DNA of 64,000 nucleotides, taken from assembly GCA_050485365.1 (NCBI GenBank), contig JBJHBH010000008.1:2143-66142 (forward strand). Reading direction: 5' to 3'. Positions 14,301 through 36,282 of this stretch are shown here, piece by piece (position 1 is the stretch's first letter; every line of letters starts with the position of its first letter). Both the position numbers and the translations under genes were made by a program. The notes beneath the pieces are model-generated. The model was not told where the DNA came from and ran no database searches. It saw only the letters and a program-made list of their open reading frames with translations. This stretch comes from Desulfuromonadales bacterium (lineage in GTDB: Bacteria > Desulfobacterota > Desulfuromonadia > Desulfuromonadales > JACZKF01).

Positions 14301-14392
14301 GTAGGGGCGCAATTCATTGCGCCCAGGCCCCCTGACGTCCGGCACAATGAATCCGGGCGTGACGAACCGGGCGCGATGAATCGCGCCCCTAC
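14301..14392. repeat. GTAG-type REP doublet (REPIN), copy 2
   Basis: Same arms as 10211-10292 with a different spacer. Confidence 0.85.
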
Positions 14393-16641
14393 GAGGAGAC
14401 CAGCTCGCCGATGAAGAGGCTGCCGTTGTGGACGAGGAAGCAACTCGGCATCCCCGCGGTGAGCTCGGCGAGGCGCCGGGCGTGGTTCTCCTCGTCCCCC
14501 TCCTCCGGCGTCGCCAGCCCCAGCATCACCAGATCCGCCCCGCCGCTTTCGCGCAGGATCACCTCCTTCACGCTCGTCCCCTCCGGTTTGATCATCACGT
14601 CGATCTCGGCCGAGATGCGGATCTCGGGGATGAGCTTCTCCAGGAAGCGCTCGGTCTTCTCCTGCATCAGGCGGTTCGAGGCCACCGAGAGGATGCGGAT
14701 CTGCGACCCGCGCCACTCGGGGTTGCGGGTGAGCAGGAACGAGAGCAGCAGCATCAGGTCGCCGTTTCGCTGCAGCCCCCCCCACCAGATATGCACGCTG
14801 CGCCGCTTCCCCTCGCGCAAGGGGGCCAGGGGTTTGAGCCGCCCGATCATCAAGGAGATCCCCAGGCGCTTCAGGTGCCGTATGACGCGCAGAAAGTGGA
14901 CCTGGCGATCGAACTCGTCGGGCCACCCCAGAAGGACGGTGTTGCTCTCGATGCCGGCGATGCCGCTCGCCTGCGCCACCGTGACGATACCCCTCTCGAC
15001 ATTCTGCACCACGTCGACCTCGCCGAAGGCGACGATCCCCTCGCGCTTGAGGACCGTCTCGATCTCCTTGCGCCGCTTGGCGATGTCGAGATCGAGGTGC
15101 AGCAGATCCCCCTCCACCAACTCGCACACGGTGACGATGCCGCGGTCCTCGCTGAACCAGGAGCCGTAGCGCACCAGATCGAGGCGTCGCTCGACGTTGC
15201 CGACGAAGACCAGCACGTGGGGGCGCCAGTTGCGCGCCGTCATCGGCCGGTCCGCCAGGCGGATGAGCGCCCAGCGGATGAGCGCCTCGTAGATGTCGCG
15301 GCGCACATCCCCCCAGTGCTCCTTGGCGACGCGGCGCCGCAGCACGAGCCACAGCAGCATCACGGTGAGCAGCGCCGTGATCGTGGCCGGCAGGTTGATC
15401 AGCGTCATCGCCGCGAAGCACCCCAGCGCGCCGGCGAGGCTGATCGGCCAGGGGACGTCGACGCGGGGGCGCCACGCCGGGTTCCCCGAGAGCTTCTCCA
15501 GCGCCGCCACCAGGTTGATGGTGCCGTAGACGGTGAGGAAGAACATGGTGACGACGGTGGCGACGGTGTTCAGATTCCCCAGCAGGACGGCGCTCAGGGC
15601 GATGGCCAGGGTGACGAAGAGACCGACGATCGGCTCCTTGGGGGCGCCGTTGTTGCCGTTGATCTCCTGGACGGAGTGCTTTTTCTGCGAGGAGAAGTCG
15701 GCGATCAGCGCCTGCAGGGTGCGCGGCGCCGCGAGCATCGATCCGACGGCCGAGGAGAAGATGGCCCCCCAGAGTCCCGGCAGGATGAGCCAGGGGCCGA
15801 GAACGGCGATCTGCGTCCAGACAAGCGGATCGGTGCGCAGCGTCTCGGCGTCGCTCCCCAGAAAGAGGAGGATCGGAACGAGCAGATAGACGACGAATCC
15901 GGTCAAGGTGGCCAGGATCGTCCCCTTGGGGATCGACTTGCGCGGATCGGCCAGATCGCCCGAGAGGCTCAGCCCGGCCATGATGCCGGTCACCGCGGGG
16001 AAGAAGACGGCGAAGACGAGCCAGAAATCGACCCCTTCAACGGGGGCGACGGCCTGAACGCCCTCCGGGGGCTCGCCCGTCAGGACGCCCGCCGCCAGGG
16101 CGAGGAGCGAGACGGCGATGAGCGCCATGACCGGCAGCTGGGTTCGCAGCGCCGCGCCGGCGCCGCGAAAGGCCAGGGCCGCCACCAGGGCGATGATCAC
16201 GAGGGTCGTCGCCTGGATCGGCACATCGGGCCAGACGATGCGCAGCGATTCGGCCAGACCGAAGGAGTAGAGGGTGACCGAGAGGGCCTGGGAGAGAAAG
16301 AGAGGGAAGCCGATGGCGGCACCGATGTCGACGCCGAGGCTTCGCGAGATCATGAAGTACGCCCCGCCGACGCCGACCCGGGAGTTGGTGGCCACCGCCG
16401 AGAGGCACAGCGAGGTGACGAGGGTGATGGAGTTGGCCATCGCCACGATGAGCAGGGCGCGGCCGATCCCGACCTCTCCGACGACCCACCCGAAGCGCAG
16501 GTACATGATGACGCCGAGGATGGTGAGGATGGTCGGGGTGTAGACGCCGAGAAAGGTGCCGAGCCCCGAGGGGCGGGGCCGCCTCAGGCGCTCTTTTCTG
16601 TCCGAAGGGGTTTTGGAAAGGTTTTTGAAAATTTGGCGCAT
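14389..16641 (-). CDS. Cation-chloride cotransporter / amino acid permease (SLC12-like)
   Basis: LGTFLGVY, GGAYFMISRSLG, FFPAVTGIMAG, NWRPHVLV and WWGGLQRNGDLMLL motifs. Confidence 0.88.
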   Translation of the reverse strand: MRQIFKNLSKTPSDRKERLRRPRPSGLGTFLGVYTPTILTILGVIMYLRFGWVVGEVGIGRALLIVAMANSITLVTSLCLSAVATNSRVGVGGAYFMISRSLGVDIGAAIGFPLFLSQALSVTLYSFGLAESLRIVWPDVPIQATTLVIIALVAALAFRGAGAALRTQLPVMALIAVSLLALAAGVLTGEPPEGVQAVAPVEGVDFWLVFAVFFPAVTGIMAGLSLSGDLADPRKSIPKGTILATLTGFVVYLLVPILLFLGSDAETLRTDPLVWTQIAVLGPWLILPGLWGAIFSSAVGSMLAAPRTLQALIADFSSQKKHSVQEINGNNGAPKEPIVGLFVTLAIALSAVLLGNLNTVATVVTMFFLTVYGTINLVAALEKLSGNPAWRPRVDVPWPISLAGALGCFAAMTLINLPATITALLTVMLLWLVLRRRVAKEHWGDVRRDIYEALIRWALIRLADRPMTARNWRPHVLVFVGNVERRLDLVRYGSWFSEDRGIVTVCELVEGDLLHLDLDIAKRRKEIETVLKREGIVAFGEVDVVQNVERGIVTVAQASGIAGIESNTVLLGWPDEFDRQVHFLRVIRHLKRLGISLMIGRLKPLAPLREGKRRSVHIWWGGLQRNGDLMLLLSFLLTRNPEWRGSQIRILSVASNRLMQEKTERFLEKLIPEIRISAEIDVMIKPEGTSVKEVILRESGGADLVMLGLATPEEGDEENHARRLAELTAGMPSCFLVHNGSLFIGELVSS

Positions 16642-16780
16642 CGCATCTCCCGGGAGCGACTATTTAAGCCGAAACCGAAGGAGATTGCCAGCTTTTCCGA
16701 AACGCGCGCCCGCAATGGGGAAGGCGCGCTCCCGGGCTCGACCGGCGTCGATGGCGATGGTATGATCCGTGGCGGGGGAG

Positions 16781-16969
16781 CTACTTCTGCGGGTTTTCAC
16801 CCGGAAGGAGGGCGAAGACGGTGCCGACGGCCAATCCGAACAGGGCCCCTGACCAGGGGCTCGCGAGGGCGCCTCATATGCCGCCGGCGCATTGGCCGAG
16901 ATAGCCGAGAAGGGCACCGAAGAGGGCCCCTGCGCCGCAGAAAATCGATATTCGGGTGATCCTGTTCAC
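16781..16969 (-). CDS. Candidate small membrane selenoprotein (62 aa, Sec at codon 32)
   Basis: GGAGG RBS and GTG start. Translates as MNRITRISIFCGAGALFGALLGYLGQCAGGI-U-GALASPWSGALFGLAVGTVFALLPGENPQK-stop. In-frame TGA at 16876-16874 is followed by a SECIS-like hairpin. Confidence 0.7.
16845..16860 (-). promoter_or_regulatory. Candidate bacterial SECIS hairpin
   Basis: GCCCCT-GGTC-AGGGGC begins 13 nt after the TGA, placing the loop 19 nt downstream. Loop GGUC resembles the E. coli fdhF SECIS loop. Confidence 0.6.
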
Positions 16970-17044
16970 ATATCCTCCCTGTTGCGGCCCCTGTTGGAGA
17001 GCGTGCGCCCCCGGGGGCGGACGAGCGCTTCGCGCCTTCGTCGC

Positions 17045-17545
17045 TCAGCGGCTGATGCCGATCCCGATGCCGACGCCGAATCGGGTGCGGGTCGCTTCGG
17101 GATGGTCCGTCGGCGTCCAGAGGCGCATCTCGTGGGCGCTCAGCACCGGGTAGCGGTAATCGAGCTCGTCGATGCGCCCGGTGCGGCTCCCCTGAACCTG
17201 GCCCACGACGGTGACGAGGCGCCCCGGCCGGTAGATGGCCGGATCGCGGAAGGCGGGGTCGGTAACGAGGAAGCGGCCCGCCGAGCGGTTGACGGCGCTG
17301 ATGCGGCCGCGCCCGTCGAGGGGATGCTGGACGATCTCGAATACGGTGCCGCTCTCCTTGTCGGTGCGCACCGAGGCGATGGTGCCGCCGACGAGCAGAT
17401 AGTCGCCCACATGGCGCTCGGGCTCACGGATCAGTTCTTCAAAGGTGAGCTGCGGGTCGACGAGCTGCATCGCCTCGCGGCTGACGGCCGGGGCGCACGC
17501 CGTGACGAGCAGCAAGGCGATGGCGGCGAGGATGAGGGGACGCAT
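17045..17545 (-). CDS. Slp family outer-membrane lipoprotein
   Basis: Lipobox VTAC, GRFLV, DPAIYRPGRLVTVVG, YRYPV and C-terminal GVGIGIG. Confidence 0.87.
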   Translation of the reverse strand: MRPLILAAIALLLVTACAPAVSREAMQLVDPQLTFEELIREPERHVGDYLLVGGTIASVRTDKESGTVFEIVQHPLDGRGRISAVNRSAGRFLVTDPAFRDPAIYRPGRLVTVVGQVQGSRTGRIDELDYRYPVLSAHEMRLWTPTDHPEATRTRFGVGIGIGISR

Positions 17546-17641
17546 GTCGATGACCTCCCTTCGCAAGGATATAGTGTCAGTGTGGGGCACCCCCGCAGCG
17601 CTGTCAAGAGGGGCGGCCCGTGTCGCGAGAGAGGATCGGCC

Positions 17642-17893
17642 ATGATGGTGAGAAACGAGGACGTGGTGCAGGTGACGACGGAAATCCCCGAGGGGCATCT
17701 GCATCTGCGTACCACGCTGCAGTTGGTGGACGGAACGGCTGTGGTGCTGCAGGAAGCGACGATGGCGGCCCTGGTGCGGGCCTACGTCGCGGTGAAGACC
17801 GATCCGCTGCGCGAGCGCGTGGTGCTGACGGGGCGCAAGGTCGCCGAGCGAAAGAAGGGGTATGCCGAGTGGCAGCTTCTGGAGGTCGAATGA
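17642..17893 (+). CDS. Conserved hypothetical protein (83 aa)
   Basis: GAGG RBS and coding-like codon usage. Sequence includes EIPEGHLHLR..LQEATMAALVRAY..KKGYAEWQLLE. Confidence 0.65.
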   Translation: MMVRNEDVVQVTTEIPEGHLHLRTTLQLVDGTAVVLQEATMAALVRAYVAVKTDPLRERVVLTGRKVAERKKGYAEWQLLEVE

Positions 17894-24329: not shown

Positions 24330-25343
24330 ATGACCAACGACATCATCCTTCTTGGCCACGGCAGCGGCGGCAAGCTGAGCCACCAGCTCCTCAACGAGCT
24401 CATCGTTCCGACGCTCTCGGGAATCGAGGCGCGCGACCAGAACGACGCGGCGATCCTCGCGGCGAGCGGGGGGCGCCTCGCCTTCACCACCGACTCGTAC
24501 GTCGTCGACCCGATCTTCTTCCCCGGCGGCGACATCGGCGATCTGGCGGTCAACGGCACCGTCAACGACCTTGCCATGGCCGGGGCGCGCCCGCTGGCCC
24601 TCTCGGTCGGGCTGATTCTGGAAGAGGGGCTCCCCCTGGCCGACCTGCGGCGCGTCATCGAATCGATGCGTGCCGCCGCCGACGCAGCCGGCGTCCGCAT
24701 CGCCACCGGCGACACCAAGGTCGTCCCCCGGGGCAAGGGGGACAAGATTTTCATCAACACCTCGGGGATCGGCGTGATCGAGCACCCCTTCGATCTGCGC
24801 GGCAGCGGCGCGCGCCCCGGCGACAGGGTCCTGATCAACGGTCCCGTCGGCGACCACGGCATGGCGGTCCTCGCCTCGCGCGAGGGGCTCGAGCTCGAAG
24901 CCGACATCCGCACCGACAGCGCCCCGCTGCACACCCTGGTGGAGGCGATCCTGTCGGCGGGGGGAGAGGCGGTGCACGCCCTTCGCGATCCGACCCGCGG
25001 CGGGGTCGCCACCACCCTCAAGGAGATCGCCCTGCAGTCGCAGGTCGAGATCTCCCTTCGGGAGAACGCCATCCCCGTGCGCGAGGCGGTGCGTGGCGCC
25101 TGCGCCATTCTCGGCCTCGATCCCCTCTTCGTCGCCAACGAGGGGAAGCTTCTGGCGGTGGTCGCCCCGGAGGCGGCGGGTGCGGTCCTCGAAGCGATGC
25201 GCCGGCACCCGGCCGGACAAGAGGGGGCGATCATCGGAGAGGTCGTCGGGGCAGGGGAGGGGCGCGTCGTGATGACGACGGCCATCGGCGGGCGCCGCTC
25301 CATCGAGATGCTCTCGGGGGAGCAACTGCCGCGGATCTGCTGA
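24330..25343 (+). CDS. hypE: Hydrogenase maturation protein HypE
   Basis: HGSGGK, TGDTKVV, RDPTRGG and C-terminal PRIC. Confidence 0.96.
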   Translation: MTNDIILLGHGSGGKLSHQLLNELIVPTLSGIEARDQNDAAILAASGGRLAFTTDSYVVDPIFFPGGDIGDLAVNGTVNDLAMAGARPLALSVGLILEEGLPLADLRRVIESMRAAADAAGVRIATGDTKVVPRGKGDKIFINTSGIGVIEHPFDLRGSGARPGDRVLINGPVGDHGMAVLASREGLELEADIRTDSAPLHTLVEAILSAGGEAVHALRDPTRGGVATTLKEIALQSQVEISLRENAIPVREAVRGACAILGLDPLFVANEGKLLAVVAPEAAGAVLEAMRRHPAGQEGAIIGEVVGAGEGRVVMTTAIGGRRSIEMLSGEQLPRIC

Positions 25344-30357: not shown

Positions 30358-31449
30358 TTAGTCTTCTGGCGGAATCGGTTGGGGAACCTCGGAGGGGATC
30401 AGGGGGCGGGGGGGGATGTGGTCGGGGATCGTGAGGAGCATCGTCCCCCGGGGCATCTCCAACTCGTCGTAGAGGCGCCGCGTGTTGCGGATGTACGCCT
30501 TGGAAAGGTGGACGGGGAGGAAGGCGCCGGGGCGCAGCTCTTCGAGGAGGGCGTTGACGTCGGTGGTGCACAGGTGCCGCGACGCCCTTGCCTTCTCGGC
30601 GTCGGCGGCGAGGAAGGTGCACTCGGCGATCAGGAGCGTCACGCCCCGCAACAAAGAGACGATCTTCCGCCGGTTCGCCTCGCTGAAGTCGACGTCAGTA
30701 AAATAGCCGAGGCTCGCCGGGGGCGCCTCGCCCCGGATCGCCTCGTACAGGGCGCGGGCGTCGCGCACCGTCTCGCTTCGCTCCCCTTCGGCGGTGCGCC
30801 GCACGATGCGGATCGGTTCGTCGCCCATCGTCCCGCGATGGAAGCTCTTTTTCAGCATCCCGATCCACGGCCCGGCCTCGATCCCTTCGCGCAGGAGCTT
30901 TTCCGGATCGATGAGAAACGGAGGCGCTTCGGTGAGGCGGAAGAAGAGGACGGGGAGGCCGTGATCCGCCGTTTCCGCTTCCACACGCAGGTGACGGTTC
31001 TCGTAGATGGTGCGACCGGCCCTTTGCACTTCGCCCAACTCGCGCAGGGGGAACCCCTCGGGACCGGGCAGAAGGAAGGTGCGGGAGAGCCCCGGGGCGA
31101 TCTCGTGTACACGAAACGAGCACCAGTGCGCTTCGGTGAGGTTCCAGTCGTAGCCGCCGAGTTTTTTCTCGAGGCGCCGGGCGATCCCGGGGGGGCCGAA
31201 CAGATCGACGGTGCGCGGGGAGACGTGGACGTGGCGCACGAAGGTGTCGATCCCCATGAAGTGGTCCATGTGCGCGTGGGTGATGAAGAGCGCTTCGGTC
31301 GATTTGAGGACACGCTTGGCCAGGTGGGTGATCTGCCCGCAGTCGAACAGGAGGCCTTTGCCCCGGGGGCGCACGCGCACCGAGACGACGGGATCGTCGA
31401 GCAGGCCGCTGTAGAGGGTCGGTTCGATGGCGCGAAAGAGGGAATTCAT
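30358..31449 (-). CDS. Ribonuclease Z-like metallo-beta-lactamase fold protein
   Basis: LLFDCG, THAHMDH, YFTD, ECTF and PVHLS motifs. Confidence 0.8.
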   Translation of the reverse strand: MNSLFRAIEPTLYSGLLDDPVVSVRVRPRGKGLLFDCGQITHLAKRVLKSTEALFITHAHMDHFMGIDTFVRHVHVSPRTVDLFGPPGIARRLEKKLGGYDWNLTEAHWCSFRVHEIAPGLSRTFLLPGPEGFPLRELGEVQRAGRTIYENRHLRVEAETADHGLPVLFFRLTEAPPFLIDPEKLLREGIEAGPWIGMLKKSFHRGTMGDEPIRIVRRTAEGERSETVRDARALYEAIRGEAPPASLGYFTDVDFSEANRRKIVSLLRGVTLLIAECTFLAADAEKARASRHLCTTDVNALLEELRPGAFLPVHLSKAYIRNTRRLYDELEMPRGTMLLTIPDHIPPRPLIPSEVPQPIPPED

Positions 31450-31595
31450 CTCTACATTCTACCGTGCGGTGCGCCGCAGCTGAATCGGAGCGTTGACTTT
31501 TCGAGTGCCCGGTGTAAGCTCCTGACGACTTTCACGTTCAGGTCTTCATTCATCCAACCGGGGCGCGTCGGGAGGTGCGCCGCAGGGGCTTTGTC

Positions 31596-32123
31596 ATGAT
31601 TTTTCGGTGCATTCTGATCGCCCTTTTCATCCTCGCCGGGGGGAGCGCCGCCGCGGCGCAAAGCGAACCCGAAGTCGTCCGTTCGTTCGGCGCCTTCGAT
31701 GTGCTCGGCGACAGCCGCAACGTTCTGGAGGTCGGCGTCGGGTTCTTCGACATCGCGGACCGGCACTCGGTGGAGGCCGTCAAGATCGAGGGGCGCCTCG
31801 GGCGCAAGCTCTCCTTCGTCGGGCCGGCCCTCGGGGTGGTGGCCAACCGCGAGGGGGGCGTTTTCGGTTACATGGGCGCCTACGTCGACATCGCCGTGGG
31901 GCGATTCACCCTCACCCCCCTGGGCGGCATCGGCGCCTACCACAAGGGCGACAGCAAGGATCTGGGGGGATTCTTCATCTTTCGCTCCGGCCTCTCGGTC
32001 GCCTACCGCCTGAGCGAGCGCCTCGGCATCGGCGCCGCCTGGGGGCACGTCTCCAACGCCCGGATCTACAACAGCAATCCGGGGCAGGACGACCTCTTTG
32101 TCACCCTGCAGTGGCGATTCTGA
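31596..32123 (+). CDS. Acyloxyacyl hydrolase / PagL-like outer-membrane beta-barrel
   Basis: Signal peptide, HVSNA...NPG motif and C-terminal Phe. Confidence 0.75.
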   Translation: MIFRCILIALFILAGGSAAAAQSEPEVVRSFGAFDVLGDSRNVLEVGVGFFDIADRHSVEAVKIEGRLGRKLSFVGPALGVVANREGGVFGYMGAYVDIAVGRFTLTPLGGIGAYHKGDSKDLGGFFIFRSGLSVAYRLSERLGIGAAWGHVSNARIYNSNPGQDDLFVTLQWRF

Positions 32124-32248
32124 GGCATCGTCTCCCCTTCTTCCCGACGCAAAGTGGTCCGATCCGCCGTTTTCGAGGTTGATTTGACGGCGCGGACGTC
32201 CTAGCATATCCCTTTTTCATTCACCACAGATCCACGGGAAAACCAGCC

Positions 32249-34036
32249 TTGAAGGCCATCACACCTCCGAACCGGCTGCGGGAGCGATGCACCGCGGCCT
32301 TGAGCCGTTTGCGCGTCAGCGAAAACACCTTCATGATCATCCTCGCGGTGATCATCGGGGTGATCTCGGGGCTGGTCAACTACGCCTTCCGCATGACGAT
32401 CGAGTTTTTCGACTGGCTCGTCATCGGCCAAGGGAGCGCTCTGCTCGGCGTCTCCTTCGACGAATGGAGCGCCTCGCGCCTACTGGTGATCTTCTTTCCG
32501 ATGATCGGCGCGTTTCTGCTCGTCCCCCTCTTCTATTTCTTCGGGGCTGAGATGCGCTCGGGGTTCCCGCAGTTTCTCACCACCGTCAATCTCAAGGGGG
32601 CGAAGATCCCGGGGCGCACCATCTTCACCCGGGGGGCGGCGAGCGCCGTCGTCATCGGCACGGGGGGGTCGGCCGGGCAGGAGGGGCCGATCGCGCAGAT
32701 CGGCGGTGCCATCGGCAGCCAGATCGGCCAGGGGTTCAAGATGAGCGGTGAGCGCCTGAAGGTCCTCGTCGCCTGCGGCGTCGCCGGCGGGGTGGCGGCG
32801 ACCTTCAACGCCCCCATCGCCGGGGTCTTCTTCGCCCACGAGATCGTGCTGCGCTCCTCCTTCGAGCGCACCAGCTTCACCTCCATCGTCATCGCCAGCG
32901 CCATGAGCACCGTGGTGTCGCGGGCGCTTCTGGGCAATCACCCCGAATTCGTCGTCCCCCCCTACGTCCTCGTGCACGCCGGAGAGCTCGCCTTCTATCT
33001 TGTCCTCGGCGTCCTCATCGGCGGGCTCGCCGCCCTGTTCATCGACACCCACTACCGCATCAAGGACCGCTTCGACGCCCTGTCGATGCACCCCCTCGCC
33101 AAGCCCTTCGTCGGCGCGGCGCTGGTCGGGGTCATCGGCGTCGGCTTCCCCCAGGTCTTCGGCAACGGCTACGAGTTCATCGAGGCGGTCCTGCACGGCG
33201 ACGGCTCCCTCTACCTGCTCGGGGCGCTGGTGGTCCTGAAGGCCCTCGCCACCTCCTTCACCCTCGGCTCGGGGCTCCCCGGGGGGCTCTTCGCCCCCTC
33301 CCTCTTTCTGGGGGCGGTGGCCGGGGGGGCCTTCGGCAAGGGGGCGCAGCTCCTCTTTCCGGGGATGATCGCCTCGCCCGGAGCCTACGCCCTGGTGGGG
33401 ATGGGGGCCTTTTTGTCGGCGGCGACCCACGCGCCGATGACCGCCATCTTTTTGCTGTTCGAGATCACCGCCTCCTACGAGGTCATCATCCCCATCATGA
33501 TGACGTGCGTCATCGGCACCGCCATCAGCCGCCGCATCAAGCGCGAAAATCTCGAGACGGTGGAGCTCGCCCGGGCGGGGATCAACCTGGAAGGGGGTAA
33601 GGAGCGCAACGTCCTGCAGTCGATCCGCGTCGGCGAGGTGATGAACCGCCAGGCCGAGACGATCCCCGAGAACATGACGCTTCGGCAGTTCACCGACTTC
33701 ATGGCGAGCACGCGGCACACCAACTTCCCCCTGGTCAACCGCAGCGGCGAGCTCACCGGGATCATCTCGGAGCAGGACTTCATGGGGGTCGTCTTCGAGC
33801 CCGACCTCATGGATCTGGTGGTCGTCAAGGAGCTCGCGACCCTCAAGGTCGTCACCGTCCACGAGGACGACAACCTCGACGAGGCGATGCGCCGGATCGG
33901 CATCCGCAACATCGAGCAACTCCCCGTGGTCGATCGGCACACGGGCAAGAAGCTGGTGGGGATCGTCTCCCGGCGCGACATGCTCTCGGCCTACAACCGG
34001 GCTCTGATGGCCCGCACACTGCAAGGTGAACAATGA
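32249..34036 (+). CDS. CLC chloride channel/antiporter with CBS domains
   Basis: GQEGP, FNAPIAG and GGLFAPS motifs plus a C-terminal CBS pair. Confidence 0.92.
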   Translation: MKAITPPNRLRERCTAALSRLRVSENTFMIILAVIIGVISGLVNYAFRMTIEFFDWLVIGQGSALLGVSFDEWSASRLLVIFFPMIGAFLLVPLFYFFGAEMRSGFPQFLTTVNLKGAKIPGRTIFTRGAASAVVIGTGGSAGQEGPIAQIGGAIGSQIGQGFKMSGERLKVLVACGVAGGVAATFNAPIAGVFFAHEIVLRSSFERTSFTSIVIASAMSTVVSRALLGNHPEFVVPPYVLVHAGELAFYLVLGVLIGGLAALFIDTHYRIKDRFDALSMHPLAKPFVGAALVGVIGVGFPQVFGNGYEFIEAVLHGDGSLYLLGALVVLKALATSFTLGSGLPGGLFAPSLFLGAVAGGAFGKGAQLLFPGMIASPGAYALVGMGAFLSAATHAPMTAIFLLFEITASYEVIIPIMMTCVIGTAISRRIKRENLETVELARAGINLEGGKERNVLQSIRVGEVMNRQAETIPENMTLRQFTDFMASTRHTNFPLVNRSGELTGIISEQDFMGVVFEPDLMDLVVVKELATLKVVTVHEDDNLDEAMRRIGIRNIEQLPVVDRHTGKKLVGIVSRRDMLSAYNRALMARTLQGEQ

Positions 34037-36282
34037 AAGACGATCTGCTCAAGGGGCTCAATCCCCGCCAGCGCGAGGCGATCCTGCACGGCGAGGGGCC
34101 ATTGCTCCTTCTGGCCGGGGCGGGCTCCGGCAAGACCCGCACCCTCACCCACCGCGTGGCGCACCTGATCCGCGAGCGGGGGACGGCGCCGTGGCGCATC
34201 CTTGCGGTGACCTTCACCAACAAGGCGGCGGCCGAGATGCGCGAGCGTCTGCTGCACCTGCTGGGGGACGAGGCCAAGGGGCTGTGGGTCGCCACCTTTC
34301 ACGCCGCCTGCGTGCGCATCCTGCGCCGTGAGATCGCCGCGCTGGGGTACACCTCCGACTTCACCATCTACGACGACGGCGACCAGGAGCGGCTGCTGCG
34401 CACCATCCTCAAAGAGCTCGAGATCCCCGAGAAGACCCTTCGCCCCCGCTCGGCGGCCGCCGCCATCGACGCGGCGAAGAACCGCGGACGGCTGCCGCAC
34501 CAGGTCGAGCGCGGCGACGCCTATCACGATCTGACCGCCCGGGTCTACGAGGCGTACCAGCAGCGCCTCAAGCAGGCCAACGCCGTCGACTTCGGCGACC
34601 TGCTCCTGCTCACCGTGCGCCTCTTCGACGAGCACCCCGAGATCCGCCACCGCTACGCCGAGCGCTTCGAGCACCTGCTCGTCGACGAGTTCCAGGACAC
34701 CAACGAGGTGCAGTACGCCCTGATCCGCCACTTGGCGCACCGCCACGGCAACGTGTGCGTCGTCGGCGACGACGACCAGTCGATCTACGCCTGGCGCGGG
34801 GCGCAGATCGGCAACATCCTCAATTTCGAGCGCGACTGGCCCGGCTGCGCCGTCATCCGCCTGGAGCAGAACTACCGCTCGACCGCGACGATCCTCGAGG
34901 CGGCCGGCGAGGTCGTCGCCCGCAACGTCGGGCGAAAGGGCAAGACGCTGTGGACCGAGAACCCCGCCGGAGAAAAGCTCACCGTCGAGCTCCTTCCCGA
35001 CGACCGCGAGGAGGCGCGCTTCGTCGCCGCCGAGATTTCCCGGCTGCGCCGCCGCGGGCGCCACCTGCGCGACGTGGCCGTCTTCTACCGCACCAACGCC
35101 CAGTCGCGCTCGCTGGAGGAGGCGCTGGTGCAGGAGCGCCTCCCCTACGTCATGGTCGGCGGGGTGAAGTTCTTCGCCCGCATGGAGATCAAGGACGTTT
35201 TGGCGTACCTGCGCGCCCTGCTCAATCCCGCCGACGCTCTCTCGGCGCGGCGCATCGTCAACGTCCCCCCCCGGGGGATCGGGGCGGCCACCGTCGAGCG
35301 CATCGGCGCCTTCGAGGCCGAAGCGGGCGGCTTCCTCCCCGCCTGCACCATCGCCCTGGAGCGCGGCGCCCTCAAGGGGGCGGCGGCCGCCAAGGTGCGC
35401 GGCTTCGTCGAGCTGATGCGCACATTCGCCGAGAAGATGGAGCACACCCCCTACCCCGAGCTCACCGCCGAGCTCATCGAAGAGTCGGGGTACGGAGCGG
35501 CGCTGCGCGAGACGGCCTCCGGGGCGATGAGTGCGGCCGACCGGGAGGAGGCGCAGGAGCGCCTGCAGAACCTGGAGCAGCTGCTGGCGGGGATGGAGGA
35601 GCATGTCGCCACCGAAGGGACGCTGCACGACTTTCTCGAACAGGTCGCCCTCGTCACCGACCTCGACAGCTATGACGGCAGCCTCGACCGCGTCACTCTC
35701 ATGACGCTGCACGCCGCCAAGGGGCTCGAATACCCCGTCGTCTTCATGACGGGGATGGAGGAGGGGCTCTTCCCCCACAGCCGCACCAGCGCCGCCGAGG
35801 AGTCGCTGGAAGAAGAGCGGCGCCTCGCCTACGTCGGGATGACCCGGGCGATGGAGAAGCTCTACCTCACCCACGCGCGCCAGCGCCGCATCTTCGGCGA
35901 CTTCCAGTTCAACCCCCCGAGCCGCTTCCTGGGGGAGATCCCCCCCCATCTGGTGGAGGGGGCGCAGACCCCCGCCGCCCCCCCGGCGCTGCAAAAGACC
36001 GCGGGGCACAACCTCGCCTCCATCTTCGAGCGCTTCCCCGCCGCGTCTCTGGAAGACGAGGCGGAGGCCGCAGCCGAGCCCTCACCTTTCGACGAGGTGC
36101 GCGTCGTCCCCGAGCCCGAGGAGGGGGTGCGCCTCGGCACCCGGGTACGCCACCTCAAGTTCGGCATCGGGACGGTGCGGCGCATCGAGGGGAGCGGCGA
36201 CAACCAGAAGGTCACCATCTACTTCAACACCGTCGGCTCCAAAAAGCTCCTCCTCAAATTTGCCGGACTCGAGCCCGCCTGA
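34033..36282 (+). CDS. uvrD: ATP-dependent DNA helicase UvrD/PcrA
   Basis: AGAGSGKT, TFTNKAA, VDEFQD, GDDDQSIY, HAAKGLE, YVGMTRA and C-terminal Tudor-like domain. Confidence 0.93.
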   Translation: MKDDLLKGLNPRQREAILHGEGPLLLLAGAGSGKTRTLTHRVAHLIRERGTAPWRILAVTFTNKAAAEMRERLLHLLGDEAKGLWVATFHAACVRILRREIAALGYTSDFTIYDDGDQERLLRTILKELEIPEKTLRPRSAAAAIDAAKNRGRLPHQVERGDAYHDLTARVYEAYQQRLKQANAVDFGDLLLLTVRLFDEHPEIRHRYAERFEHLLVDEFQDTNEVQYALIRHLAHRHGNVCVVGDDDQSIYAWRGAQIGNILNFERDWPGCAVIRLEQNYRSTATILEAAGEVVARNVGRKGKTLWTENPAGEKLTVELLPDDREEARFVAAEISRLRRRGRHLRDVAVFYRTNAQSRSLEEALVQERLPYVMVGGVKFFARMEIKDVLAYLRALLNPADALSARRIVNVPPRGIGAATVERIGAFEAEAGGFLPACTIALERGALKGAAAAKVRGFVELMRTFAEKMEHTPYPELTAELIEESGYGAALRETASGAMSAADREEAQERLQNLEQLLAGMEEHVATEGTLHDFLEQVALVTDLDSYDGSLDRVTLMTLHAAKGLEYPVVFMTGMEEGLFPHSRTSAAEESLEEERRLAYVGMTRAMEKLYLTHARQRRIFGDFQFNPPSRFLGEIPPHLVEGAQTPAAPPALQKTAGHNLASIFERFPAASLEDEAEAAAEPSPFDEVRVVPEPEEGVRLGTRVRHLKFGIGTVRRIEGSGDNQKVTIYFNTVGSKKLLLKFAGLEPA

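Follow-up and report, generated by a model that had tools for sequence, protein, structure and literature searches.

Within the 64,000-nucleotide window analysed here, a stretch of a Desulfuromonadales genome, the minus strand at 16781-16969 very likely holds a functional gene, monocistronic and of the DUF6132 family (PF19628), whose product would be a selenoprotein of 62 residues. That this is a real gene, and that its in-frame TGA encodes selenocysteine (Sec), we state with high confidence. The evidence was obtained by computation and consists of the structure of the gene, its family, the match between Cys in homologues and TGA in this gene, selection on both sides of the TGA, constraint on a hairpin downstream and the Sec machinery of the genome. 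A preliminary description of the same DNA had proposed that the TGA is read as Sec, and had named beforehand what would speak against this: another residue at the position in homologues, no conservation beyond the TGA, or a genome devoid of the machinery. None of these tests spoke against the proposal, and the Cys/TGA column, the hairpin constraint and the machinery support it.

A short gene with an in-frame TGA

The gene lies in a gap of 403 bp free of called genes, from the start of an SLC12-type transporter gene (16641) to the end of the open reading frame (ORF) of an Slp lipoprotein (17045); the preliminary description had put this gap at about 400 bp. The ribosome-binding site, the GTG start, the in-frame TGA and the TAG that it reported were all confirmed in the sequence, and the loop of the peptide and a hairpin whose own loop lies 19 nt past the TGA are both present. 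The features of the gene are as follows.

16781-16969, minus strand: complete gene of a probable selenoprotein, DUF6132 (PF19628), 62 codons plus TAG
16974-16978, minus strand: GGAGG ribosome-binding site, 4-nt spacer to the start, read directly from the sequence
16967-16969, minus strand: GTG start codon; 31 sense codons, then TGA
16889-16891, minus strand: TGC codon of Cys27, the putative partner of Sec in C-x4-U; the residue is invariant across all 20 orthologues, and 148 of the best 150 homologues have Cys here
16874-16876, minus strand: in-frame TGA, codon 32, probably read as Sec; same column in 20 of 20 order-level and 10 of 10 further phylum-level matches
16781-16783, minus strand: TAG stop, 30 sense codons beyond the TGA, from the ORF reading
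16845-16860, minus strand: candidate apical hairpin of a selenocysteine insertion sequence (SECIS), GCCCCU-GGUC-AGGGGC, from folding, conservation, covariation and published bacterial SECIS criteria
16855-16860 and 16845-16850, minus strand: the two stem halves of the hairpin, with the GGUC loop at 16851-16854
16886-16963, minus strand: predicted helix 1 (AlphaFold2), spanning residues 3-28, hydrophobic and rich in Gly
16808-16858, minus strand: predicted helix 2 (AlphaFold2), spanning residues 38-54, hydrophobic and rich in Gly, with opening codons that double as the hairpin

The full read-through peptide of this minus-strand ORF is MNRITRISIFCGAGALFGALLGYLGQCAGGI-U-GALASPWSGALFGLAVGTVFALLPGENPQK, and the sequence around Sec is GYLGQCAGGI-U-GALASPWSGALFG. 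A promoter/terminator scan gave no promoter-like or terminator-like site for the gene on the minus strand.

Conservation on both sides of the TGA

The read-through peptide matches the Pfam model of DUF6132 with an E value of 9.5e-10 and 38.4 bits (cut-off 23.2), confirming the family resemblance that the preliminary description had suggested. The match runs across the TGA, from residue 8 to 54 of the peptide and from position 11 to 55 of the 60 in the profile; a six-frame search of the genome itself with PF19628 scored 33.2 bits.

When the own genome and those of 60 relatives within the order were searched in six frames, an orthologue was found in 20 of the 61 genomes, with an identity of 40-75% among the matches outside the own genome. 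Each match contains exactly one TGA, and it falls in the same alignment column in all 20. The start codon precedes it by 31 codons at 16 loci and by 32 at 4, and the frame closes 29-32 codons past it in 17 of the 20 orthologues. Invariant residues are found before the TGA (G18, G22, Y23, C27, G29) as well as after it (P38, W39, S40, G41, G45, G49). Upstream of the TGA (24 codons, 152 usable pairs) the median pairwise dN/dS (the ratio of nonsynonymous to synonymous substitution rates) is 0.28, and downstream (23 codons, 184 pairs) it is 0.32, both rough values with dS close to saturation. Conservation downstream, one of the tests set beforehand, thus equals that upstream. In five of the 20 orthologues the terminator of the gene is itself a TGA, which means that TGA has not been reassigned throughout these genomes and still serves as a stop there.

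Searching a sample of 401 genomes from the phylum in six frames with the Pfam model at E<=0.001 gave 13 matches in 11 genomes, all with TGA, and no Cys form of DUF6132. All 30 six-frame matches in the phylum (the 20 order-level and 10 further ones) carry the TGA. A second Sec subtype (…VKCxGST-U-…PWSW…) is also present and co-occurs with the first in two genomes. These paralogue pairs, in G215 (L045, L053) and G245 (L043, L054), combine a GKCSGST-U-G…PWSG type with a VKCVGST-U-P…PWSW type, the latter having a compensated CCA/UGG stem pair. Two further phylum-level Sec forms, L048 and L049, have five residues between Cys and Sec (C-A-G-G-G-S-U and C-A-G-G-T-A-U); despite the extra residue, the distance from hairpin to TGA is unchanged.

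Cysteine in the TGA column of homologues

We compared a profile built on the 20 orthologues with 1.84 billion representative proteins, which yielded 271 homologues at E<=0.001, and the TGA column was read in the best 150 of them. It holds Cys in 139, Trp in five, Gly in one and a gap in five. The test agreed on beforehand, that position 32 should be Cys or TGA, thus found Cys in 139 of 150 proteins and TGA in 30 of 30 phylum matches. Four of the five gapped homologues (P0099, P0128, P0136, P0141) are products of 31-32 residues that end exactly at the TGA, which is to say that public collections hold Sec forms as fragments. The five Trp proteins (P0003, P0067, P0089, P0093, P0110) are those nearest to the TGA loci, and one of them, P0110, gives the terminal TGA of the closest locus as Trp too, which points to gene calling under a code in which TGA is Trp. 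Because of this proximity and this terminal Trp, all five look like miscalls. The preliminary description had expected gene callers that stop at TGA to miss the gene; recorded calls end at the TGA or give Trp there, and a word-based protein search returned a single homologue, a Cys form, and no full-length orthologue on record.

The consensus of the Cys form is G-Y-F-G-K/Q-C-S-S-G-x-C-P-L-T-x-x-P/W-[WYF]-R-G. Sec forms retain the first Cys and the spacing of the C-x4-[C/U] loop, and have Sec at the place of the second Cys. The residue that follows is Pro in 129 of the 150 homologues and Gly in 18 of the 20 Sec-type orthologues, a difference that marks the Sec forms as a putative distinct subfamily. 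For the Cys-type genes themselves, 400 relatives were confirmed in the genome collection and the best 80 of them examined; these 80 belong chiefly to Verrucomicrobiota, Planctomycetota, Kiritimatiellales and Victivallales, and Atlas clusters add Bacteroidota to the range.

A hairpin that tracks the TGA

The hairpin, whose loop opens 19 nt past the TGA, has a minimum free energy of -11.1 kcal/mol. Its codons are frozen: +6 to +9 after the TGA read CCC TGG TCA GGG in 20 of 20 orthologues. Codons elsewhere in the same genes vary synonymously, as seen at Gly29 (GGC 16, GGT 2, GGG 1, GGA 1), Gly45 (GGA 9, GGT 6, GGG 3, GGC 2) and Cys27 (TGC 14, TGT 6). As a control, the 80 Cys-type genes use a spread of codons for the homologous Pro (CCT 17, CCA 12, CCG 12, CCC 7) and Gly (GGG 23, GGC 21, GGT 21, GGA 15); none of them contains the hairpin 12-mer, and all four core pairs are possible in only two. 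The codons of the hairpin being frozen in TGA forms and free in Cys-type genes, the constraint tracks the TGA and not the protein motif.

Pairing is maintained where the sequence changes. In the PWSW subtype, the change from GGG (Gly) to UGG (Trp) is joined in four of five loci by a silent change from CCC to CCA, so that a C-G pair becomes A-U, and in one further locus U-G replaces U-A at the closing pair. Over the 30 sequences 94.8% of cells pair, and three of the six pairs show compensatory changes, in nine cells. None of 500 column shuffles matched the observed covariation score or percentage paired, and sliding the 3' partner by 1-3 columns lowered pairing to 32-68%.

A published model of bacterial SECIS elements asks for a loop of 3-9 nt opening with G and then G or U, a stem of 4-16 bp, a spacing of 16-37 nt and a minimum free energy of -7.5 kcal/mol or lower (PMC13188914, section 5). 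With a loop of 4 nt, a stem of 6 bp, a GG loop start at 19 nt and -11.1 kcal/mol, the hairpin agrees with the model in all four respects. The GGUC loop of E. coli fdhF, which the preliminary description had mentioned, is indeed found in E. coli K-12 as GCA-GGUC-UGC, its loop 18 nt after the UGA as compared with 19 nt here. One of the two TGA-containing fdhA genes of the own genome likewise has a GGUC(U) loop 18 nt past the UGA, while the second fdhA and selD have loops of the G-U-U type, unlike this gene. What the hairpin shares with the elements of fdhF and of that fdhA is the GGUC apical loop, a G+C-rich stem and a place inside the coding sequence; it differs from these elements in that its conserved part is a 6-bp mini-helix, and neither a conserved lower stem nor a bulged U was found.

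Selenocysteine machinery and a hint of transcription

All four genes of the machinery, whose presence was a further preset test, are in the genome and score above curated cut-offs. A single contig (G000:C80:2-3833) carries selB (399.6 bits) and selA (619.4 bits) as well as tRNA-Sec (76.4 bits); selD, at G000:C86:229-1149, scores 359.5 bits and contains an in-frame TGA of its own. Two fdhA genes with an in-frame TGA are found at G000:C25:20834-23815 and 31405-34434. Counting the gene studied here, the genome would have at least four selenoprotein genes. Across the order, selB is present in 55 of the 61 genomes and in all 20 carriers of the gene, one of them with a partial match; the gene occurs in none of the six genomes without a selB match, three of which are incomplete. 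Since nearly the whole order uses Sec, this association is consistent with our reading and not very informative. Elsewhere in the window, at 24354-25100 on the plus strand, there is a weak match to the selD model (50.7 bits, cut-off 125), which might belong to the AIR-synthase-related superfamily and not be a second selD.

One sequencing run contains the entire stretch and may be the source of the window. Positions 16650-17070, just the small gene with its flanks, are also spanned at about 92% identity by a 439-nt contig assembled from a single RNA-seq library of a separate study. The contig stems from a relative in a different habitat. Within the ORF it has nine differences, five synonymous and four replacements; one of these, I31T, goes towards the family consensus, and the TGA and the hairpin are unchanged.

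Predicted structure and topology

AlphaFold2, run on a 109-row alignment, predicts two helices, residues 3-28 and 38-54, joined by a loop with Sec32; helix 1 has Cys27 at its end. Lys and Arg together average 2.45 per Sec form in the N-terminal tail, 0.05 in the loop and 1.9 in the C-terminal tail, which also holds 1.85 Asp and Glu. This charge bias suggests that both termini might be cytoplasmic and the loop outside; the loop of the Cys forms has 1.44 Lys and Arg, which makes this topology tentative. No PDB sequence matched the family profile with an E value below 0.57.

Thioredoxin fusions and gene neighbourhoods

The clearest pointer to function is domain fusion, seen among the Cys forms. 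A domain scan of 49 homologues at least 140 residues long (within P0007-P0152) found an N-terminal DUF6132 and a C-terminal thioredoxin (PF00085) in 46, one of which also has a Redoxin match; one long homologue has AhpC/TSA in place of thioredoxin. The CxxC motif is kept in the thioredoxin part in 45 of the 49 (CGPC in 23, CPPC in 10). An AlphaFold2 model of a fusion is confident (predicted local distance difference test score, pLDDT, 91.5; predicted template modelling score 0.74); its C-terminal domain superposes on classical thioredoxins with a template modelling score of about 0.9, and a fold search of the PDB gave thioredoxins only. Likewise, of the 80 Cys-type loci (L055-L134), 49 encode products of at least 129 residues and 31 encode stand-alone proteins of at most 100. 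The thioredoxin fusion is the commonest DUF6132 architecture seen.

At the 31 stand-alone loci, 141 of 179 neighbouring ORFs were scanned, and the recurrent neighbours were as follows.

RND (resistance-nodulation-division) efflux pump gene: 16 of 31 loci
Thioredoxin gene, within about 1 kb: 8 of 31 loci
Rhodanese gene: 4 of 31 loci
DUF302 gene: 3 of 31 loci

YeeE-type sulfur transport, DsrE, TusA, YgaP-TM and OsmC were each found at a single locus. The RND-adjacent genes (L059, L072, L076, L081, L093, L098, L100, L102, L109, L114, L119, L121, L124, L127, L132, L133) belong to Verrucomicrobiota and Planctomycetota and stand beside or within efflux operons; at L119 the DUF6132 gene lies between the adaptor and the pump gene. 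Genes for rhodanese, DUF302 or thioredoxin often come after these RND-linked genes. A stand-alone DUF6132 protein could possibly be a small accessory or redox subunit of the efflux system. The pumps beside Cys forms score best on generic multidrug RND models and not on CusA/CzcA, their ORFs being partial.

For the Sec-type genes, 150 of the 172 flanking ORFs at 30 loci were compared with Pfam, leaving out 22 (at L049 and L051-L054). In the window the gene is flanked by the following two.

14392-16641: SLC12-type transporter gene (AA_permease and SLC12), its start at 16641 bounding the gap
17048-17608: Slp lipoprotein gene (PF03843), the end of its ORF at 17045 bounding the gap

Both of these, noted in the preliminary description as Slp and cotransporter neighbours, are present; the context is unconserved among the orthologues and carries no functional information. 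We therefore dropped it as a functional clue, the neighbours being unconserved across the 30 Sec-type loci.

How the gene might work

We propose that codon 32, UGA, would be read by SelB with Sec-tRNA(Sec), which a short SECIS hairpin would recruit. This hairpin would consist of a CCCCU/AGGGG stem with an additional G-C pair and a GGUC loop, made of the Pro-Trp-Ser-Gly codons that open helix 2. The protein would be a Gly-rich helical hairpin in which helix 1 ends with Cys27 and the loop between the helices carries Sec32. Cys27 and Sec32 might join reversibly in a selenenylsulfide, a redox pair located at the membrane or within it and recycled by thioredoxin; we propose this recycling because 46 of the 49 long homologues are DUF6132-thioredoxin fusions. 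Sec in place of one Cys of a conserved pair would also mark the pair as chemically active. Such a thioredoxin-linked redox function of Cys27 and Sec32, which the fusions make the simplest reading, has about an even chance of being correct. A bolder version, which we put forward tentatively and consider on the unlikely side, is that these are widespread, uncatalogued, minimal membrane-embedded selenoproteins in which a Cys-x4-Sec selenenylsulfide switch within a 62-residue glycine-zipper hairpin relays electrons or chalcogen between thioredoxin and a membrane or periplasmic substrate. If true, the relay would be a two-helix functional analogue of DsbD/CcdA, with the switch inside the membrane or at its outer face, and building the SECIS from the Pro-Trp-x-Gly codons of the family would have forced the change from Arg to Ser in every Sec form.

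Several points weigh against this account. Selenium insertion, and likewise translation, are deduced by computation, and the RNA-library contig is a weak hint of transcription rather than proof. Folded as a single sequence, the hairpin is not exceptional: as a 20-nt element it has a z score of -1.44, with 14 of 200 shuffles at least as stable, and in contexts of 42 and 66 nt it is unremarkable (z = +0.64 and +0.33). As G+C-rich shuffles fold equally well, the significance of the hairpin rests on comparison across genomes. Here four of the six stem pairs are invariant in the 20 closest orthologues, which weakens the statistics, and the covariation signal comes from the distant, phylum-level forms. 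An Rfam scan of 16000-17800 at E<=10 returned two chance eukaryotic matches and no SECIS family. NCBIfam contains no family that matches the peptide, its sole match being arsenic_eff at an E value of 2.3. The AlphaFold2 monomer has a low mean pLDDT of 63.8 and was used for secondary structure and helix boundaries only. Other points bear on the function. No neighbour is conserved among the 30 Sec-type loci, and none of the Sec-type genes found is fused to thioredoxin. The Sec forms have no Pro after the second Cys position, and they have Ser where 108 of the 150 homologues have Arg; their loop chemistry may differ from that of the Cys forms. Finally, if the loop is periplasmic, a cytoplasmic thioredoxin would have no direct access to it.

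Alternative explanations

If the TGA were a true stop, the gene would make a 31-residue peptide with one helix, or be a pseudogene, and the conservation downstream would have some other cause. The four fragments of 31-32 residues in the public protein library, and the word-based search that found no full-length orthologue on record, fit with this. Nonetheless, we consider it the least probable of the explanations, to be set aside almost entirely: the 23 downstream codons are under purifying selection in frame (median dN/dS 0.32), that part is homologous to the second half of DUF6132, the ORF ends 29-32 codons past the TGA in 17 of 20 orthologues, and the TGA is kept in 30 loci down to 40% identity, unlike what is seen in a pseudogene. 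It is also very improbable, if slightly less so, that the TGA is read through by a near-cognate tRNA inserting Trp, Cys or Arg, the hairpin then being a stimulator of read-through or a pause site for the ribosome. The computations do not tell which residue enters, and five database proteins have Trp at the position; these, however, are the ones nearest to the TGA loci, and with a terminal TGA also given as Trp in one of them they look like calls under a TGA=Trp code. Cys, the usual counterpart of Sec, aligns with the TGA in 139 of 150 homologues, the hairpin has a SelB-type GGUC loop at the spacing of fdhF, and selB is present in 20 of 20 carrier genomes, all of which argue for Sec.

The main functional rival accepts a genuine selenoprotein and differs on what the loop does. 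The loop would bind a soft metal or metalloid (Hg, Cu, Ag, As, Se, Te) or a persulfide, or hand it on, and the protein would act like the small two-helix carriers and not through a pair recycled by thioredoxin. The preliminary description had left both options open, inferring a redox or metal-binding loop; the thioredoxin fusions favour the first, and the second becomes this rival, which we hold to be a possible but rather improbable explanation. It draws on the stand-alone Cys-type genes of Verrucomicrobiota and Planctomycetota, 16 of 31 of which adjoin RND efflux operons or lie within them, on the rhodanese (4 loci), DUF302 (3 loci) and single YeeE-type, DsrE, TusA, YgaP-TM and OsmC neighbours, and on the catalogue of known selenoproteins, which lists a MerT-like mercuric transport protein, YeeE/YedE and the Cu/Zn efflux transporter SO_0444 (PMC13188914). 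However, the RND pumps, as far as their partial ORFs tell, fit multidrug models better than CusA/CzcA, such a context is absent beside the Sec-type genes at the 30 loci examined, Pfam and NCBIfam searches gave no similarity to MerT or other metal transporters, and the dominant architecture of the family is the fusion to thioredoxin.

Relation to known systems

The closest known relatives are the Cys-type DUF6132 proteins of Verrucomicrobiota, Planctomycetota and Bacteroidota, including the thioredoxin fusions. They have the same two Gly-rich helices, and share with the protein of the window the G-Y-x-G-x-C-x-x-G-x-[C/U] loop and a P-[WYF]-x-G motif opening helix 2; the window protein differs by Sec for the second Cys, Ser for the Arg of P-W-R-G and Gln for the Lys before the first Cys. 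Small helical hairpins rich in Gly-x3-Gly are likewise seen in Gly-zipper_YMGG and C19orf12-like proteins. We know of no conserved Cys/Sec pair in the glycine-zipper families. Membership in Gly-zipper_YMGG or among the C19orf12-like proteins was rejected, with scores below threshold (12.5 against 28.9 and 16.8 against 30), as was membership in the glycine-zipper families PF13441 (12.5 bits, cut-off 28.9), PF13436 (9.1 bits, cut-off 27) and PF13488 (7.7 bits, cut-off 25).

A 2026 review catalogues 119 prokaryotic selenoprotein families and subfamilies (PMC13188914, Table 1). Among its membrane selenoproteins are the MerT-like mercuric transport protein (PF02411), YeeE/YedE (PF04143) and TsoB, a rhodanese/DsbD-like selenoprotein with a UxxxxU motif (PMC13188914, Table 1). 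As would be the case in the window protein, all three have Sec in or beside a transmembrane segment, and TsoB has the same four-residue spacing between its two chalcogen residues. They show no Pfam or NCBIfam similarity to it, and with 62 residues and two helices it is far smaller. Neither PF19628, nor a C-x4-U motif, nor a glycine-zipper or comparable membrane family appears in Table 1 or the full text of that review (PMC13188914). The deep-Sep paper reports other new selenoprotein families (PMC12013277). Among the full-text matches listed there is no published description of DUF6132 selenoproteins, and the supplements of surveys may use another name.

A search of metagenomes used a pattern that requires the Cys, the TGA and the hairpin core, the core pairs hence giving no independent evidence there. 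It returned at least 120 matches, at least 75 of them family members (69 distinct peptides) and 45 of them chance hits in G+C-rich DNA. The Sec form appears to be common in environmental data, because 75 family members stand among the matches listed.

What the finding means

The decoding mechanism would be textbook SelB/SECIS recoding, and the protein family is known only as a domain of unknown function. What we describe is most probably an additional bacterial selenoprotein family, unusual by its size of 62 residues, its predicted membrane location and a SECIS built from its own Pro-Trp-x-Gly codons. The list of selenoproteins would thus gain a family present in 20 of 61 genomes of the order, elsewhere in the phylum and in metagenomes. 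The gene is also a case of mutual constraint between a coding sequence and an RNA signal, with three codons synonymously frozen and a change from Gly to Trp offset by a silent change at Pro. A 62-residue selenoprotein with a SECIS core of 16 nt could serve as a compact test object for the insertion of Sec. Lastly, the Sec form may provide the first functional handle on DUF6132, which is abundant in Verrucomicrobiota, Planctomycetota and Bacteroidota, and whose fusions to thioredoxin suggest a thiol/selenol redox chemistry located at the membrane.

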